This document shows positions 1 to 6,040 of a stretch of DNA of 64,000 nt, one piece after another. The stretch covers positions 1-64,000 of the forward strand of contig OZ245015.1 in NCBI GenBank assembly GCA_965223705.1. Reading direction: 5' to 3'. The notes under the pieces are model-generated. The model had not been told where the DNA came from, ran no database searches, and was given only the letters and a program-made list of their open reading frames with translations. Each line of letters begins with the position of its first letter. Positions within the stretch are counted from its first letter, which is position 1. This DNA is from Myxococcota bacterium. GTDB taxonomy: Bacteria; Myxococcota_A; UBA9160; UBA6930. Both the position numbers and the translations under genes were made by a program.

Positions 1-568
1 CGTCACGCATCGCGCGTGACACACAAAAGTGGTCGTCTGCGAGCCGACCGAACGCGATCTCGAGCAGACGAACCCCTCTCACGACGGGGTGCCGATTCCC
101 GAGTCGAAGCGCCAGCACGGAGTCTCCGAAGTTGTGCCAATCGATGACGAAGCGCGCTCCGCGAAGGCGAGCCGCGCACCAAGCCACCGGCAGCGTGGGA
201 AGGCTCGGCGGGCTCTGAACGAGTAGGGCGTCGGGACGATCGACCCGGAAGAGCAGCAGACCGAGCAAGTGAGTTGCCTGCACGACGAACCGTAGCAGGG
301 CCACCGGGAGGTAAAGCAGGCGGGGCACGCGATCAAATACCTTCGCAGAGACAAGGGAGTGCACGCGGAGTTGCGCGTGATCTTCCGCTGCGCTGCCGAT
401 TGAAGTCTCGCGATAACCGACCAGATCCACCAGGACGCCGTTGTTCGCGAGGGCGAGCGCGTGGTACAAAATTCTGGGGCTCCGCCCTAGATCGCCGAGC
501 ACGAGCACGAGAACTCGGGAAGGCTCGCCTCGAACGTCGTCGGGCGCTGTGCGGTCGCTGGTAGACAC
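1..568 (-). CDS. ALG1-like beta-1,4-mannosyltransferase (GT33), 5' part only; runs off the left edge
   Basis: Not in the ORF track. Manual translation from GTG at 568 is stop-free to position 1: ...RVLVLVLGDLGRSPRILYHALALANNGVLVDLVGY...DALLVQSPPSLPTLPVAWCAARLRGARFVIDWHNFGDSVLALRLGNRHPVVRGVRLLEIAFGRLADDHFCVSRAMRD. It matches the ALG1 hallmark motifs LGD(V/L)GRSPR..YHA, QNPP, IDWHN, HP(L/V)V and CV(T/S).AM in the right order. Confidence 0.88.
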   Translation of the reverse strand, partial: MSTSDRTAPDDVRGEPSRVLVLVLGDLGRSPRILYHALALANNGVLVDLVGYRETSIGSAAEDHAQLRVHSLVSAKVFDRVPRLLYLPVALLRFVVQATHLLGLLLFRVDRPDALLVQSPPSLPTLPVAWCAARLRGARFVIDWHNFGDSVLALRLGNRHPVVRGVRLLEIAFGRLADDHFCVSRAMRD

Positions 569-603
569 GCGCGTAGGGTGACACGTCCGGCCGGGAGAGA
601 GTA

Positions 604-1764
604 TTGAGCTCGCATCGCCAAGAAGACCGACCGGTTCGCATCGCGATCGCGTGCGGCGGAACGGTCGGACACGTGGCGCCCTCCCTCGCGGTCGTTGAGA
701 CCTTGAAAGAGCGACAGCCCGAAGCCGATGTACTTTTTCTCGGGGCGAACATCGGTCCAGAAGCCGATCTCATCCGTAGCCGCGGACACCGTTTCGAACC
801 TTTGCCCGCGTCCGCGTTCTTCCGTGTGCCCCTGCGGCGTCGCCCCCTCGCTATGTGGAACGCATTAACCGGTGCGCGCCGCGCGCGACGACTCCTGCGA
901 GACCACGGCACGCAACTCCTCCTCGGTTTCGGCGGCTACGGCTCGGTCGGAGCCGTGCTCGCTGCGTCAAGCCTTCGCATTCCGGTCGTTCTACATGAAC
1001 TGAACGCGCAGCCCGGCCTCACGAACTGGGTGCTGGCGCGACTCGCCCGTCGCGTGCTCGGCAGCTTCAACCCGATGGTGCTCGGCGGCCGACCGGCCAC
1101 GTGCGTCGGAACGCCCGTCGAAAGCCATGTCCTCGCGAGCGGGGAGGAACGCGAGCCCCCTCAGCCGGGATCTCTCCGAGTTCTGGTGTGCGGTGGAACC
1201 GCGGGTTCCCGTTTTCTCGACGACCGCGTCCCGGAGCTCTTGGCGCGGCTCGCCCGACGGGGCATCAAGGTCCAGGTTCTTCACTCGGTCGGTTCAACGC
1301 CCGCCGAAGGACCGCGCGCGGCGTATGCGCGCGCCGGCATCGAGGCGCACCTGACGCCTTTCATCGAGCAGATGGCCGGGGCTTATGCGTGGGCCGACGT
1401 TGCCGTGGCCTGCGGCGGGGCGGCCACACTGGCCGAACTCGCATCCGCCGGGCTGCCGGCGTTGCTGGTGCCTCTCGCCGAAGCGGCGCTCGATCATCAA
1501 GCTGCAAACGTCGAACGCTTCTCCGAACGAACCGGCGCCCTGTGGACGACCGAGGCCGAATGGGATCCCGAATCCCTGGTATCGAGCTTGGAAACGCTGG
1601 CCGTGAACCCGGCCGCCTGGCTCGCGGCATCGGACGGAATGCGACGCGCCCACGATCCGCGCGCGGCTGCGAACGTCGTGGCGGCTTGCTTCGAGACGCT
1701 CGGCGCGAACGCGCGAAATGTCTCCACCTTTGAAGCGCGACGCGGTACCGAAGCTCACCCCTAA
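604..1764 (+). CDS. MurG-like glycosyltransferase (GT28), divergent, outside a dcw cluster
   Basis: GGTVGH (cf. GGTGGH), GFGGYGS, HELNAQPGLTN, GTPV, and FIEQMAGAYAWAD...GAATLAELASAGLPALLVP...DHQAAN are MurG motifs with several substitutions. Confidence 0.85.
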   Translation: MSSHRQEDRPVRIAIACGGTVGHVAPSLAVVETLKERQPEADVLFLGANIGPEADLIRSRGHRFEPLPASAFFRVPLRRRPLAMWNALTGARRARRLLRDHGTQLLLGFGGYGSVGAVLAASSLRIPVVLHELNAQPGLTNWVLARLARRVLGSFNPMVLGGRPATCVGTPVESHVLASGEEREPPQPGSLRVLVCGGTAGSRFLDDRVPELLARLARRGIKVQVLHSVGSTPAEGPRAAYARAGIEAHLTPFIEQMAGAYAWADVAVACGGAATLAELASAGLPALLVPLAEAALDHQAANVERFSERTGALWTTEAEWDPESLVSSLETLAVNPAAWLAASDGMRRAHDPRAAANVVAACFETLGANARNVSTFEARRGTEAHP

Positions 1765-1770
1765 CTCGTC

Positions 1771-4380
1771 ATGGCAGTGAATCGACTTCTCTCCTGCGTG
1801 CTCCTCGTAGCCGTGGTCGCCCTCGTCTTTTGGCTCCGCACAGCTCCTCTTTCCTTGGCGGCCGTGAACGACATGGCGGCGCATTTCGTCACGATGGAGA
1901 TCAGCGAGCGAATCGCGCGGGAAACAGAGCCCGATCCTTCTCCAGAGAAATACCGCACCGCCATCCTTCGAAACGTCGAGGAATGGTTCGAGAGCAACGA
2001 GGAGGAGTTCCGAACGAAAGTCGGCGAGCGCGCCGACTCGCTCAAGTCGCAGTTTCGCGTCACGTGGGGTGATGGCCGGAAACAAGCCTATCTCGGAGAC
2101 ACGGACAGCTATCACTGGTTGCGGGCCGCGCGCAACTACATCCGTCGGGGAACGACGTGCGACGACGTCGTCGACGACGAATGCCGAGACACCTACGGCA
2201 ATGCACCGGTGGGCCACCGGATGCTCTACAACCGCTCGGTGCACATCGCCGCCATCGTGGGCGTCGATCGCCTCGTCGACCACTTCGATCCCGAGTTCCC
2301 CCTCGTCGCCGCCGCATTCTGGGTACCCGTCATCGTCGCCGTACTCGGCGTGATTCCCGCCTTCTTCGTCGGGCGCCGATTCGCGGGAAACCTGGGCGGC
2401 CTCTTCGCCGCCGTCGTCACCTCGATTCATCCCGTGCTTCTGATGAGAAGCATCGGGAGCGACAACGATATTTGGCACGGAGTCCTACCACTGTTCGCGT
2501 TTTGGGCTGCGGTCGAAGCGCTTCGCGCGAAGCGCTTTCACCTCCTCGGGCTCGCGGCACTTGCTGGAGGTGTGGCGGGGGTCCATGCGGCGACGTGGCG
2601 TGGGGGGCTCTTCTTCTTTGTCGTGTTTCTCTCCGGCCTGCTGGCCGCGGCTGCACTCTCCTTTTTCCGCGCGATGCTCCGGAAACACGATGGCGTGCCC
2701 TGGTGGCGCAACCCCGAGGCCGGCCGGGCGCTCCTCGTAGCGGGTGCCTATGTCCTGGCCACTGTGGCGGTCGCGGGTGCCGCCGGAACCGAAGAATCTC
2801 GGTCGTTCTTCGCCGCTCCGCTGGAGTTTCTTCAAACGGACGGAGATGTGCCCGAAGCGGCGGTCGGAGACGCGCAATGGCCGAGTGTCTTCAGCACGGT
2901 GTGGGAGCTCAAGAAACCGGAGCTGTCCGACCTCGCCCCGTTTATGGGCGCCGAGATCTATTTGGCGCTCGCCGTCGCCGGCATCGTATCCGCGTTGATG
3001 ATTTCGCTTCGCGCGCCCGGCGAGAGCCGGCCGACCCTCGGTGGGACGTTGATCCTGGTGGCGTGGTTCGTCGGCGCGTTTGATCTGGCGCTGCGCGGTC
3101 AGCGCTTTTCGCTCCTGTTCGTCGTTCCGTTCGGAATAGGGCTCGCGTGCCTCGTCGGTTGGCTCTACGACACCGTCTGCCGACGACTTCCCGAGCCCCC
3201 GAGCGCGCTCGGTAAACGGCTGTTGGAATCCGGTGTCGGTGCGGTTCTCTTGCTGCTCTTGATTCCTCCCGTGATGGCCGGTCACGCGACCGCTCGGAAC
3301 TACCTGCCGCAGATCGACAACGCGTGGTGGGAGACGCTGGTCAAGATCCGGGAAGAGTCGAGCCCCGACGCCATCGTGAATTCCTGGTGGGACTACGGGT
3401 ACTGGATCAAGTATCTGGCCGAGCGACGCGTGAGCGTCGACGGCGGAACGCTCCGCACCCACGCTCATCACTGGATCGCGAAGGCCTTGCTCGCGCGCGA
3501 CGAGACCGAGGCGGTCGGCATCCTCCGCATGCTCAACTGCGGATCCGACGCCACGCCGTTTCCCGAAGGCGAGCTCGGCGCCTACGGGAAATTGATCGCA
3601 GCCGGTCAGAGCGGTGTCGACGCATACACCGCCCTCTCGACGATCGTGGTGATGGACGCGGCCGAAGCCCGCGCGCACTTGGCAGCGATCGGTTTGACGG
3701 AAGACCAACTGAGGGGCGTTCTCGGTTCGAGTCACTGCGATCCCCCCGAGTCTTTCGTGGTTCTCGACCAGTCCCTCGAGCAAAAAAGCGGTGCTTTGAT
3801 GCGTATCGGGTTGTGGGATGTCGCGACAGGCGTCGCACCGGCGTTCCCCATCCGCCCCACCGTCTGGATGCAGTGCTTCGTCGTCTCTCCGGGGTCCCTG
3901 ATCGAATGCCCGCTGGGACCGATGCGCTACGGCCCCCACCTGGGACAGACGGCGTTCTCCTACGACCCTACATCGCCTGAGACGGGGCGCATCGTTCTTC
4001 GCGCGCCTCCGGAGGAAACGGCGGCCCCGCCTCCGGAGGAAGCCGCGGCTGCGCCCGTAGCAGGTCAGACGACCCTGCTCGAGCACACCCTGCCGGCGGC
4101 CGTCCTCGTGGCAGGGGAAGATGGGCTCTCGCGTGGAACCGCGCCTGATGTTCCCCAAATCGAAGTGTTGCTAGATGCCGCGAACGGCCGCGTCTTAGTC
4201 GGCCCGCCCCACTTCGTCGGCTCGACGTTCTCGCAGCTCTTCTTTCTCGAGGGTCGCTACTCGAAACACTTCGAAGCGTTCGATCGACGAGCCACGTTCA
4301 TGGGAAATGTCGTAACCGCTTGGAAGATTCGCTGGAAGTTGGCGGAGAGGGAGGGATTCGAACCCTCGATGGGCGATTAA
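1771..4380 (+). CDS. Oligosaccharyltransferase, STT3/AglB/PglB family
   Basis: Multi-TM N-terminal half with DTDSYHW, RSIGSDND (DxD), STVWE (EL5 TIxE-like) and GQRF; C-terminal NSWWDYG and VDGGT. Confidence 0.92.
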   Translation: MAVNRLLSCVLLVAVVALVFWLRTAPLSLAAVNDMAAHFVTMEISERIARETEPDPSPEKYRTAILRNVEEWFESNEEEFRTKVGERADSLKSQFRVTWGDGRKQAYLGDTDSYHWLRAARNYIRRGTTCDDVVDDECRDTYGNAPVGHRMLYNRSVHIAAIVGVDRLVDHFDPEFPLVAAAFWVPVIVAVLGVIPAFFVGRRFAGNLGGLFAAVVTSIHPVLLMRSIGSDNDIWHGVLPLFAFWAAVEALRAKRFHLLGLAALAGGVAGVHAATWRGGLFFFVVFLSGLLAAAALSFFRAMLRKHDGVPWWRNPEAGRALLVAGAYVLATVAVAGAAGTEESRSFFAAPLEFLQTDGDVPEAAVGDAQWPSVFSTVWELKKPELSDLAPFMGAEIYLALAVAGIVSALMISLRAPGESRPTLGGTLILVAWFVGAFDLALRGQRFSLLFVVPFGIGLACLVGWLYDTVCRRLPEPPSALGKRLLESGVGAVLLLLLIPPVMAGHATARNYLPQIDNAWWETLVKIREESSPDAIVNSWWDYGYWIKYLAERRVSVDGGTLRTHAHHWIAKALLARDETEAVGILRMLNCGSDATPFPEGELGAYGKLIAAGQSGVDAYTALSTIVVMDAAEARAHLAAIGLTEDQLRGVLGSSHCDPPESFVVLDQSLEQKSGALMRIGLWDVATGVAPAFPIRPTVWMQCFVVSPGSLIECPLGPMRYGPHLGQTAFSYDPTSPETGRIVLRAPPEETAAPPPEEAAAAPVAGQTTLLEHTLPAAVLVAGEDGLSRGTAPDVPQIEVLLDAANGRVLVGPPHFVGSTFSQLFFLEGRYSKHFEAFDRRATFMGNVVTAWKIRWKLAEREGFEPSMGD

Positions 4381-4430
4381 CCCATACTCCCTTAGCAGGG
4401 GAGCGCCTTCAGCCGCTCGGCCACCTCTCC
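4340..4430 (-). tRNA. tRNA-Ser (anticodon GCT)
   Basis: Reverse complement reads GGAGAGGTGGCCGAGCGG...CTCCCCT-GCT-AAGGGAG...long variable arm...GGTTCGAATCC...CCTCTCCGCCA, with encoded CCA. Confidence 0.96.
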
Positions 4431-4476: not shown

Positions 4477-5355
4477 TCACCCTCGCAGCAGCGATCGCAA
4501 TCCCTTTTCGAGCTCGTCCCAGCGGGTGTCGTACTGCTGTTCCACCCGTGTGACAAGGTAGGCGGTTTGCGAAACCGCCGATAGCTCGCGCGGCCCTCGC
4601 CGCTTGACGAGCCTACTTCCGGGCCGGCTCACCTCATTTCTGAGCTTTGCGACGACATCGGGGACAAACACCGCGCAATGCCCTCTGGATGCCAGCTCGA
4701 GGGCGGTCTGCAGCATCGAGAGCCGGTAGCGCACCAAGCGGGGCACGCGCTCTGGCCAACCGTCGACTGCAGGTGCCCCCGACGGCGCAGCCGCCAGCAT
4801 CGACACCGGGACGGCGAAAGGAAGCTCTCGGAACGGAGCCCCCGCGAATGCTTTCTGTCGCACGTAGATGCCGAAGTTCATTTTCGCGATCGGGCGAAAA
4901 GAAAGCTCCGTGTGGGGATAAGGCACGTACGTGAGGCCGACGTCGACGCGACGGTCGAGGACCGCGCGCTCGATCTGGCGTGTGGGCAAGTCGACGATTC
5001 GCAGCTCACCACCCAACACGCCTCGGTCGACCAACGACGCGAGGATACTCGTCGTGAAGACTTCAAAGGACGCGATCGCTTGTGGCGCTGGATGGAGCCC
5101 CTCAGAGGACAGATCTTCTCGAAGTCGCCGAAGCTCTTCGAAAATTCTCTCGCTCGAGGCGTATAGGCGATGCGCTTCGTCGGTCGGCACCAACTTCCGG
5201 CCAGCACGCACAAAAAGCCGACGATCGATCTCGGCCTCGAGCGTTCGAATCGCTTTCGAAAGCGCGCCGGGCGTCACGTGGGCGAGCCGGGCTGCTCGGG
5301 TGAGGCCACCGGTTTCCATCACCGTCCTGAAGTAGCGGAGACGTTCGAGATCCAT
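4477..5355 (-). CDS. LysR-family transcriptional regulator
   Basis: N-terminal MDLERLRYF...GLTRAARLAHVTPGALSKAIRTLEAEI...LFVR helix-turn-helix; about 292 aa. Confidence 0.9.
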   Translation of the reverse strand: MDLERLRYFRTVMETGGLTRAARLAHVTPGALSKAIRTLEAEIDRRLFVRAGRKLVPTDEAHRLYASSERIFEELRRLREDLSSEGLHPAPQAIASFEVFTTSILASLVDRGVLGGELRIVDLPTRQIERAVLDRRVDVGLTYVPYPHTELSFRPIAKMNFGIYVRQKAFAGAPFRELPFAVPVSMLAAAPSGAPAVDGWPERVPRLVRYRLSMLQTALELASRGHCAVFVPDVVAKLRNEVSRPGSRLVKRRGPRELSAVSQTAYLVTRVEQQYDTRWDELEKGLRSLLRG

Positions 5356-5379
5356 TTGTTTCCTTCGGCTCAACGATCA

Positions 5380-5950: not shown

Positions 5951-6040
5951 TGGCGGAGAGGGTGGGATTCGAACCCACGAGGCGCGTGAACGCCTAGCGG
6001 TTTTCAAGACCGCCGCCTTCAACCACTCGGCCACCTCTCC
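5951..6040 (-). tRNA. tRNA-Ser (anticodon TGA)
   Basis: Reverse complement reads GGAGAGGTGGCCGAGTGG...GCGGTCT-TGA-AAACCGC...long variable arm...GGTTCGAATCCCACCCTCTCCGCCA. Confidence 0.96.

Follow-up and report, generated by a model that had tools for sequence, protein, structure and literature searches.

The eukaryotic ALG1 protein is the chitobiosyldiphosphodolichol beta-1,4-mannosyltransferase of CAZy family GT33, and an N-terminal transmembrane anchor, which is not known to be needed for catalysis, is typical of many of its eukaryotic forms. The gene has been described as being of unknown origin and possibly a eukaryotic innovation (Lombard 2016, PMC4973528). Two recent bioRxiv preprints extend the family to bacteria: Kifer et al. 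2024 (10.1101/2024.10.30.621208) note ALG1 matches in bacteria only, and Xu et al. 2025 (10.1101/2025.10.15.682550) list 204 bacterial ALG1 homologues, of which five were assayed, three being active and two inactive. The active PoALG1, BiALG1, and GaALG1, from Polyangia, Binatia, and Gammaproteobacteria, respectively, complement yeast alg1-delta, and the active homologues make Man1GlcNAc2-PP-phytanyl, which is extended by human ALG2. The words STT3, PglB, operon, and gene cluster, and any beginning neighbo-, do not occur in the main text of Xu et al., and therefore the linkage of ALG1 to an oligosaccharyltransferase, a MurG paralogue, and a flippase is not treated there. Two further systems provide points of reference for the present locus, namely the chitobiose-forming MurG relatives Alg13/Alg14 of eukaryotes and Agl24 of Sulfolobus (Meyer et al. 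2022, PMC8993221) and the Campylobacter-type pgl loci.

ALG1 in bacteria is already known from the preprints of 2024-25, and it is the gene context that we have not found in print, since no paper describing a bacterial ALG1-oligosaccharyltransferase gene cluster was found in a literature search that ran without most subscription journals or bioRxiv supplements. The DNA analyzed here (the window) covers positions 1 to 64,000 of a circular contig of 4,542,233 nt, C1. An earlier note, made from the window alone, had proposed an ALG1 gene at its very edge and called the family essentially eukaryotic. The latter view is outdated, given the bacterial homologues found active in the 2025 preprint and the ALG1 relatives that we found in 135 bacterial species genomes, and many metagenome relatives are already labeled beta-1,4-mannosyltransferase by JGI.

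An ALG1-type gene divided between the contig ends

The open frame that the earlier note described as hidden at the window edge is real. It begins with GTG at position 568 of the minus strand and runs for 189 codons, without a stop, to the edge, and its translation contains all five of the strings quoted for it, VLGDLGRSPRILYHALALA, VQSPPSLP, VIDWHNFGDSVL, HPVV, and FGRLADDHFCVSRAMR. The ORF track missed the frame for the reason then suspected, that it runs off the sequence; because the window opens contig C1, it is the contig end that interrupts the frame, rather than a stop codon. The remainder of the gene lies at the far end of C1, and the gene looks split because the circular chromosome was linearized inside it. 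The features of the locus are as follows.

2..568, minus strand: N-terminal half (acceptor-side GT-B domain) of the predicted ALG1/GT33-type beta-1,4-mannosyltransferase gene (eukaryote-only ALG1 profile, 202.2 bits)
604..1764, plus strand: GT28 glycosyltransferase, a second MurG paralogue, divergent from ALG1 (Pfam Glyco_transf_28 N-terminal 1.9e-28, C-terminal 1e-27)
1771..4380, plus strand: STT3/AglB/PglB-family oligosaccharyltransferase, 869 aa (Pfam STT3 1.3e-23, STT3-PglB_core 4.1e-9)
4340..4430, minus strand: tRNA-Ser(GCU), right-hand boundary of the island (ARAGORN)
19292..19999 of L002, at the far end of contig C1 and outside the window, minus strand: C-terminal half of the predicted ALG1-type gene, 235 codons plus stop
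15858-16188 of L002, outside the window: tRNA-Arg and tRNA-Ser(GGA), left-hand boundary of the island (ARAGORN)

Both halves of the gene are open to the contig ends, and their frames join if one or four bases are missing or if two bases overlap. In all 80 related loci the halves follow each other head to tail on the same strand, and in 78 of these they share a frame, with two residues between them in 71 of the 78, which points to about two codons missing at the contig junction. Independently assembled contigs from two public runs, which may derive from the sample used for the genome assembly itself, cover window positions 1-2500 with zero differences and extend 3,842 nt beyond position 1, bridging the ends of C1. 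They also span the junction at 568-604, which the earlier note had singled out for checking. We regard it as very likely, judging from the sequence, that the edge ORF forms the N-terminal half of one intact gene encoding an inverting GT-B mannosyltransferase of the ALG1 (CAZy GT33) type. For annotation, the case is a reminder that a circular contig linearized within a gene renders that gene invisible to ORF callers.

Relationship of the protein to ALG1

A profile was built from 20 named eukaryotic ALG1 proteins and run against all six-frame ORFs of the genome. The N half scored 202.2 bits (profile positions 8-182) and the C half 187.6 bits (positions 259-447), and the next-best ORF genome-wide reached 13.4 bits, a gap of approximately 175 bits; the neighboring GT4 and GT28 proteins, taken as controls, gave no score at E <= 10. 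Frog and tick ALG1 are 45 to 47% identical to the window protein over the N domain, and its nearest relatives are bacterial, at 50 to 59% identity. In the N-domain alignment (A1; 19 sequences, three of them eukaryotic) the protein keeps 14 of 14 invariant columns, and in the C-domain alignment (A3; 22 sequences, six eukaryotic) 20 of 20; in the N half the invariant H36, Q118, P120, P121, D143-W-H-N146, and E170 are all present. The Pfam library, which is without a GT33 model, reports only Glyco_trans_4_4 (4.4e-10) and Glycos_transf_1 (9.1e-7) on the gene, while with both halves an NCBIfam search gave no model at E <= 0.01, the WcaI/WbuB types included, and a PDB sequence search gave no relative at E <= 1. 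The earlier assignment to ALG1/GT33, which had named a generic GT4 of the WcaI/WbuB kind as the alternative for a profile comparison to decide, is thus upheld by the eukaryote-only profile.

The absence of an N-terminal transmembrane anchor, also claimed at the outset, is confirmed by both alignment and hydropathy, as the protein begins 18 residues ahead of the conserved RVxVxVLGD block and the maximum hydropathy of its first 30 residues is 0.37. Some eukaryotic sequences in the alignment, P0104 and P0111, likewise are without a long N-terminal extension. An internal hydrophobic stretch peaks at a hydropathy of 1.90 near residue 89, and because the N-terminal anchor is lacking, it is this stretch that would hold the ALG1 homologue at the membrane.

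A tRNA-flanked five-gene island

The ALG1 gene sits in an 8.2-kb tRNA-flanked set that comprises a GT4 glycosyltransferase, an ABC flippase, ALG1 itself, the second MurG paralogue, and the STT3 oligosaccharyltransferase. The public-run contigs that hold this island terminate within the two boundary tRNA-Ser genes. The GT28 neighbor is a fused protein with a GGTxGH loop that matches E. coli MurG at 5e-44 and is 35% identical to the product of the genome's true murG; it scores 227 bits with TIGR01133, under the cut-off of 250.25, and lies outside the dcw cluster, whereas the true murG scores 286.8 bits and lies approximately 2.7 kb downstream of mraY. The GT28 neighbor is predicted to add GlcNAc to lipid-PP-GlcNAc in the manner of Alg13/14 or Agl24. 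The STT3 translation contains the WWDYG motif and aligns to the AglB, STT3, and PglB structures, with matches in the WWDYG region to Pyrococcus AglB (2.5e-8), human STT3B (1.3e-4), and Campylobacter lari PglB (0.0099). It also contains the stretches GDTDSYHW, SDNDIW, and TVWE, which we take to fit the DxD and TIXE catalytic motifs. The ABC exporter matches the MsbA model at 5.2e-85 and the PglK model at 6.7e-69.

The GT4 neighbor carries only generic names among its 120 best matches. It was considered as an ALG2 orthologue and dropped, as a protein atlas and a homologue search gave generic GT4 names only, and a look through the genome for a close relative of ALG2 found none; for these two reasons a trimannosyl core is not supported. 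The second half of two 830-aa ALG1 fusion proteins, P0068 and P0069, is 25% identical to the GT4 neighbor, and in this genome it finds weak C-terminal GT4 matches only. The island holds no initiating phosphoglycosyl transferase, and the PF00953 genes of the genome are mraY and one in an exopolysaccharide-type locus at 1.06 Mb, 1 Mb from the island, where this non-MraY transferase accompanies Wza-like and chain-length proteins as well as a ManC gene (for GDP-mannose).

Distribution, linkage, and descent

Linkage was counted in the 80 related ALG1 loci, with an oligosaccharyltransferase scored when it lay within 10 kb. One was found in 24 of them, under six phylum-level taxon labels (nine Binatia, six Terriglobia, four Pseudomonadota, two Rokubacteria, two Delta/Myxococcota-labeled, and one Verrucomicrobiota). 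A GT28 homologue occurs in 29 of the 80, in most divergently adjacent to ALG1, an ABC transporter likewise occurs in 29, and 10 have a PF00953 transferase; the gene order in one of them, L043, is ABC, PF00953, GT28, and then ALG1 and GT4. All four partners are absent from the surrounding DNA examined in 42 of the 80. Five genomes of Acidobacteriota carry an ALG1-like gene on its own, and a genome-wide search of them for STT3 found none over the Pfam cut-off; therefore the family also works without an oligosaccharyltransferase. In the tree these solitary genes group as a single derived clade, which is nested among lineages that bear the cluster.

The trees covered ALG1-family sequences only. 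In a FastTree of 233 rows, 82 of the 83 known bacterial rows, the window sequence, and seven unnamed representatives form one clade with a support of 100, the remainder being eukaryotic ALG1, and IQ-TREE gives the bacterial clade a support of 100 (93 rows, LG+G4) or 99 (37 named rows, C20). The earlier note had looked to a phylogeny to tell transfer from eukaryotes apart from an ancestral bacterial sister clade; the trees do separate bacteria from eukaryotes, with a support of 99 to 100, but they give no direction of transfer. A transfer from algae to bacteria was hinted at by the LG+G4 tree, which joins the bacterial clade to green-lineage eukaryotes with a support of 100. This placement is not relied on, because FastTree supports it at only 30 and 80, many rows deviate in composition, and forcing the greens and stramenopiles into one clade gives a better likelihood (p-AU 0.70).

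Neither the ALG1 half nor STT3 has a match in 200 other genomes of the phylum or in two genomes of the same genus. Given this and the tRNA genes that flank the set, the five genes were most likely gained by horizontal transfer. The GC content of the ALG1 gene (0.64-0.67) and its GC3 (0.72-0.77) are inside the genome's range, and the GC content of the island equals the genome mean, so that composition lends no support to a recent transfer. An empty-site test in 20 genomes of the same family gave partial domain matches only for the flanking CBS-domain gene.

A proposed N-glycosylation pathway and its alternatives

The best explanation overall, and in our judgment a probable one on the sequence evidence, is that an ALG1-type mannosyltransferase acts within an island-encoded N-glycosylation pathway. 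That this pathway builds a Man-GlcNAc2 core for protein N-glycosylation is a reading toward which we lean a little less strongly. From homology, residue conservation, gene linkage, and recurrence in related loci, all of which were observed, we infer every substrate, the acceptor proteins, and the order in which the steps occur. Polyprenol-PP-GlcNAc would be formed by a WecA/Alg7-type transferase whose gene lies elsewhere in the genome, and the MurG paralogue would add the second GlcNAc. [quoted passage not shown] The neighboring GT4 may extend the glycan, the MsbA/PglK-like ABC transporter would flip it, and the STT3 enzyme would move it to the asparagine of exported proteins.

A eukaryotic contaminant, or a contig chimeric at 568-604 or at its ends, might be suspected from a gene cut exactly at a contig end and from an ALG1 and an adjoining STT3 that are unmatched in 202 other genomes of the phylum, and it is scarcely credible when the gene's GC and GC3 are those of the genome, the public-run contigs span positions 1-2500 free of differences and continue past position 1, the nearest relatives at 50 to 59% identity are bacterial, the sequence falls in the bacterial clade, and the divergent GT28-ALG1 arrangement recurs in bacterial MAGs of several phyla. 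The earlier note had likewise argued against eukaryotic contamination, and the island's composition and the GT28 neighbor, kept in 29 of the 80 bacterial loci, agree. It is also very improbable that the ORF is a generic GT4 (WcaI/WbuB-like) with an ALG1 likeness only at superfamily level, as the two Pfam matches might suggest; this is refuted by the ALG1 profile, which separates the gene from every other ORF in the genome by some 175 bits and gives the GT4 and GT28 neighbors no score at E <= 10, and it is opposed by the retained family-invariant motifs, the identity to animal ALG1, and the empty NCBIfam result.

The more serious alternative is that the protein is a true ALG1 relative in a cluster that serves some purpose other than protein glycosylation on a Man-GlcNAc2 core. 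The lipid-linked glycan may instead end up on a polysaccharide or glycolipid, or the enzyme may use another donor or acceptor in this lineage, with STT3 transferring a different glycan. The 42 related loci with none of the four partners nearby, the five solitary-ALG1 genomes without STT3 above the cut-off, the placement of the genome's sole WecA-type gene in an exopolysaccharide export locus, and the two homologues reported inactive as ALG1 by Xu et al. all fit such a role. Against this, WWDYG is retained in the STT3 protein together with stretches consistent with the catalytic loop motifs, the linkage of ALG1, GT28, ABC, and oligosaccharyltransferase genes recurs under six phylum-level labels, the solitary Acidobacteriota genes are a single derived clade among cluster-bearing lineages, and it is difficult to account for a second, dedicated MurG paralogue without a core of the GlcNAc-GlcNAc type. 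We consider this alternative unlikely, if still deserving of attention, and prefer the N-glycosylation pathway.

A wider proposal, which we advance only tentatively, is that of a portable bacterial cassette, consisting of a MurG-type chitobiose synthase, ALG1, an ABC flippase, and an STT3-type oligosaccharyltransferase, joined in some cases by a WecA/Alg7-type initiator and a GT4, that attaches a eukaryote-type Man-beta1,4-GlcNAc-beta1,4-GlcNAc core to asparagines in bacterial proteins and has spread among six or more phylum-level groups. Bacteria would in that case possess the cytoplasmic steps of the eukaryotic N-glycan pathway as a working clustered unit, and this unit could have given rise to eukaryotic ALG1 or could have been captured from eukaryotes in ancient times. 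An oligosaccharyltransferase-dependent pathway whose first three sugars equal those of the eukaryotic N-glycan would bear on the bacterial versus archaeal contributions to eukaryotic N-glycosylation, would raise the possibility of N-glycosylation in phyla of soil and groundwater that are sparsely represented in culture, and would offer native bacterial enzymes for glycoengineering, including an STT3 that should accept glycans with GlcNAc at the reducing end. The recent preprints show active bacterial copies without saying what role these have in bacteria, and the gene context offers a testable answer.

Comparison with known systems

The protein is the same two-domain GT-B protein as eukaryotic ALG1, with which it has in common the LGDxGRSPR...YHA, QxPP, DWHN, and DEDF stretches and the H-x-S...DLPMK...D block. 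It differs in that the bacterial copy is without the N-terminal anchor and is clustered with its presumed partner enzymes, and undecaprenol presumably takes the place of dolichol as the lipid carrier; compared with the eukaryotic pathway, no ALG2 or ALG11 partner was found here. Matches to the window protein fall in the same groups as PoALG1, BiALG1, and GaALG1 (Polyangia, Binatia, and Gammaproteobacteria), and while beta-mannosyltransferase activity was assayed for those three, the activity of the window copy is predicted by homology.

The GT28 neighbor resembles Alg13/Alg14 and Agl24 in adjoining an enzyme that needs a chitobiose acceptor and in being a second copy besides the housekeeping MurG, whereas unlike proteins of the Alg13/14 or EpsE/F type it is by sequence a close MurG paralogue. 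The island as a whole is most readily compared with the Campylobacter-type pgl loci, in which cytoplasmic glycosyltransferases, an ABC flippase, and a single-subunit WWDYG transferase of the STT3 family are also clustered, here within 8.2 kb. Unlike those loci, it has no bacillosamine genes and no initiating transferase, its glycosyltransferases are of the ALG1 and MurG types rather than PglA/H/I/J, and its oligosaccharyltransferase gives lower scores with PglB than with archaeal AglB and eukaryotic STT3.

The ALG1 gene spans the ends of the contig

The earlier note had described a hidden ORF at the window edge, and it is indeed present: the minus strand of window 2..568 holds 189 open codons running from a GTG start at 568 and stop-free up to the window edge, and all five strings quoted from it occur in the translation. 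The genome consists of contig C1 (4,542,233 nt, GC 64.7%) and one 17 kb contig, and the window begins at the first base of C1 and takes in 64 kb of it, so this frame is interrupted by the contig end. The remainder of the gene lies in the locus record of the C1 tail (L002), in a set of five genes of 8,174 nt flanked by tRNA genes.

Features of the five-gene island and its boundaries
L002 15858-16188: tRNA-Arg and tRNA-Ser(GGA), the left boundary of the island (ARAGORN)
Between tRNA-Ser(GGA) and the ABC exporter: GT4 glycosyltransferase, 384 aa
Between the GT4 and ALG1 genes: ABC exporter, matching MsbA and PglK models
L002 19292..19999, minus strand: C half of the ALG1 gene, 235 codons, open at the contig end and closed by a terminal stop
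Window 2..568, minus strand: N half of the ALG1 gene
Window 604..1764, plus strand: GT28 gene, beyond ALG1 on the far side of the junction and divergent from it
Window 1771..4380, plus strand: STT3-family oligosaccharyltransferase, 869 aa, between GT28 and tRNA-Ser(GCU)
Window 4340-4430: tRNA-Ser(GCU), the other island boundary

Pfam assigns the N half to Glyco_trans_4_4 (4.4e-10) and the C half to Glycos_transf_1 (9.1e-7), the two halves of a GT-B enzyme. In every related locus from another genome (80/80) one strand carries both halves head to tail; they share one frame in 78 of the 80, with a two-residue gap between them in 71 of those 78. We therefore read them as a single gene straddling the linearisation point of a circular chromosome. 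At the C1 junction the sequence either lacks about two codons (1 or 4 bases) or contains 2 bases twice, as an overlap. Contigs assembled independently from two public runs, which may share their sample with the genome and so are not fully independent support, cover window 1-2500 with zero differences and extend 3,842 nt past position 1 and 1,868 nt past position 2500. The contig ends are thus bridged, and a chimeric joint at 568-604, where the earlier note had advised a check, is ruled out. Because the chromosome is linearised inside the gene, ALG1 will be overlooked or cut short in any annotation of this assembly.

The edge ORF is an ALG1 homologue

A profile made exclusively from named eukaryotic ALG1 proteins, 20 in all (animals, plants, green alga, oomycete, stramenopile, fungi, and amoebozoans), was run on every six-frame ORF of the genome with 120 aa or more. 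Against it the N half reached 202.2 bits, the C half 187.6 bits, and the next ORF 13.4 bits; the neighbouring GT4 and GT28 genes, taken as controls, were absent from the matches at E <= 10. A generic GT4 as best match, the outcome that the earlier note had named as refuting its reading, is rejected on these scores, and the assignment to ALG1 (GT33) is sound. A search of NCBIfam models gave no match for either half at E <= 0.01. The invariant columns of alignments that include eukaryotes are all kept, 14/14 in the N-domain and 20/20 in the C-domain. At E <= 0.001 a homologue search yielded 358 proteins; those that matched best were metagenomic bacterial proteins at 50-59% identity, many of them called beta-1,4-mannosyltransferase in JGI naming, followed by frog and tick ALG1 at 45-47% identity (E about 1e-36). 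In the protein 18 residues precede the conserved core, and its N-terminus lacks a hydrophobic segment, in agreement with the claim that the N-terminal membrane anchor is missing; an internal hydrophobic stretch at around residue 89 may serve membrane association.

The family had also been called essentially eukaryotic, and that description no longer holds. Lombard 2016 (PMC4973528) found Alg1 unplaceable and considered it a possible innovation of eukaryotes, Kifer et al. 2024 (bioRxiv 10.1101/2024.10.30.621208) reported significant ALG1 matches in bacteria only, and Xu et al. 2025 (bioRxiv 10.1101/2025.10.15.682550) described 204 bacterial homologues, of which proteins from Gammaproteobacteria, Polyangia, and Binatia complement yeast alg1-delta and yield Man1GlcNAc2-PP-phytanyl, and proteins from Deltaproteobacteria and Methylomirabilota do neither. 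Our own searches placed ALG1 relatives at 135 of 149 pattern matches in species-representative genomes. We kept 80 loci, all from MAGs, of Acidobacteriota, Binatia, Pseudomonadota, Rokubacteria, Myxococcota, Verrucomicrobiota, and Planctomycetota. One ALG1-like gene in a MAG labelled Bifidobacterium breve (L064) is near-identical to that of an Acidobacteriota locus, L061 (branch lengths 0.02 and 0.03), and its contig is probably mis-binned.

Bacterial and eukaryotic ALG1 form separate groups

The eukaryote profile found 1,578 proteins at E <= 1e-30 among 1.84 billion cluster representatives. For a FastTree phylogeny of 233 rows we used the window, 16 named proteins, 77 of the 80 locus ORFs (three had frame or stop problems), and the 139 of 150 representatives that passed a length filter. 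One clade with support 100 contains the window, seven unnamed representatives, and 82 of the 83 known bacterial rows; the lone exception, a gammaproteobacterial locus (L046), sits on a long branch among eukaryotes and could represent an artefact or a second bacterial lineage. The 15 sampled representatives outside this clade with an organism name or a eukaryote-transcriptome source are all eukaryotic (15/15). The bacterial clade also has support 100 under IQ-TREE LG+G4 (93 rows), and LG+C20 on 37 named rows splits 16 bacterial from 21 eukaryotic rows with support 99.

The attachment of the bacterial stem is less stable. LG+G4 joins it to green-lineage sequences with node support 100; FastTree gives this placement 30 and 80, many rows are deviant in composition, and the likelihood is better when greens and stramenopiles are held together (p-AU 0.70). 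As the stem is unstable and the trees were built without an outgroup, one ancient transfer, whether from bacteria to eukaryotes or the reverse, with later spread among bacteria, would fit. The trees separate bacteria from eukaryotes but give no direction of transfer; they neither confirm nor contradict the bacterial origin claimed by Xu et al. 2025.

The island genes

The GT28 protein scores 227 bits against TIGR01133 (cut-off 250), compared with 287 bits for the true murG of the genome, which lies about 2.7 kb downstream of mraY and shares 35% identity with it; judged by its sequence, GT28 is a second MurG paralogue. The STT3 protein contains WWDYG, and the closest match of this region is Pyrococcus AglB, with human STT3 second and PglB third; further stretches presumably correspond to the DxD and TIXE loop motifs. 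The GT4 neighbour was rejected as an ALG2 orthologue on the homologue search. Two metagenome proteins, P0068 (834 aa) and P0069 (829 aa), are natural fusions of an ALG1-like and a second GT4 domain; the N-terminus of the latter appears to resemble ALG2, and the domain has only 25% identity to the GT4 neighbour.

The sole non-MraY PF00953 transferase and ManC (GDP-mannose) are encoded in an exopolysaccharide-type locus at 1.06 Mb (C1:1,054,000-1,072,000). This locus also has a Wza-like exporter, chain-length proteins, GDP-mannose 4,6-dehydratase, an epimerase, and a sugar-nucleotide dehydrogenase; its PF00953 transferase is WecA-type, and sigma-54 activators flank the locus. Just upstream of the island, L002 4272-11268 contains three genes with tandem universal-stress-protein domains, grouped with genes for a sigma-54 response regulator and a PAS hybrid histidine kinase.

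Linkage in related loci and origin of the island

Linkage was assessed by profile searches of the 80 loci with up to 10 kb of flank per side, less at contig ends. An oligosaccharyltransferase occurs in 24/80 (nine Binatia, six Terriglobia/Bryobacterales, four Pseudomonadota, two Rokubacteria, two Delta/Myxococcota-labelled, and one Verrucomicrobiota), GT28 and an ABC exporter in 29/80 each, and a PF00953 transferase in 10/80. Plain tblastn with the window's STT3 found only 15 oligosaccharyltransferase loci, as the enzymes of Bryobacterales belong to a divergent, AglB-like type. The gene order in L043 is ABC, PF00953, GT28, then ALG1 and GT4, and L046 has ALG1-like, GT4, ABC, GT28, and STT3 genes in one locus.

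The linkage is not universal: all four genes are absent within these flanks at 42 of the 80 loci, mostly Vicinamibacteria-type Acidobacteriota, and two of the 42 have unrelated neighbours. Five genomes with solitary ALG1-like loci have no STT3 anywhere above the Pfam cut-off. In the tree the solitary genes fall into a single derived clade surrounded by lineages that carry the cluster, a topology that fits later loss of the linkage.

A sample of 200 other genomes of the phylum, seven of the same family, contained no match to the ALG1 half (E <= 1e-15) or to STT3 (E <= 1e-10), and the two genomes of the same genus (87% and 75% complete) gave none either. This absence from relatives, together with the tRNA flanks, points to horizontal gain of the island. 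Its GC (0.647) equals the genome mean (0.647) and its GC3 is within range, giving no compositional signal for transfer. The public-run contigs bearing the island (8,210 and 7,017 nt) terminate within tRNA-Ser(GGA) and tRNA-Ser(GCU), whose first 19 bases are common to both. A third tRNA-Ser (UGA) lies at window 5951-6040, 1.5 kb past the island, with a LysR-like ORF (4477..5373, minus strand) in between.

A candidate pathway and its relation to known systems

From what is known of these families, a WecA/Alg7-type enzyme encoded outside the island would form polyprenol-PP-GlcNAc, and the MurG paralogue would add beta-1,4-GlcNAc as Alg13/14 and Agl24 do. Homology and the assays on relatives suggest that the ALG1 homologue then adds beta-1,4-mannose from GDP-mannose. 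The GT4 enzyme may add one or more further sugars, the ABC transporter would flip the lipid-linked glycan, and the STT3 enzyme would move it onto asparagine, again by family.

In the literature searched we found no description of ALG1 in conserved linkage with a flippase, a MurG paralogue, and an oligosaccharyltransferase. The gene itself is a further member of the kind described in 2024-25, and after those reports a bacterial ALG1 is in itself no longer surprising; what is added here is the conserved linkage with these three partners, which makes the native role of bacterial ALG1 testable.
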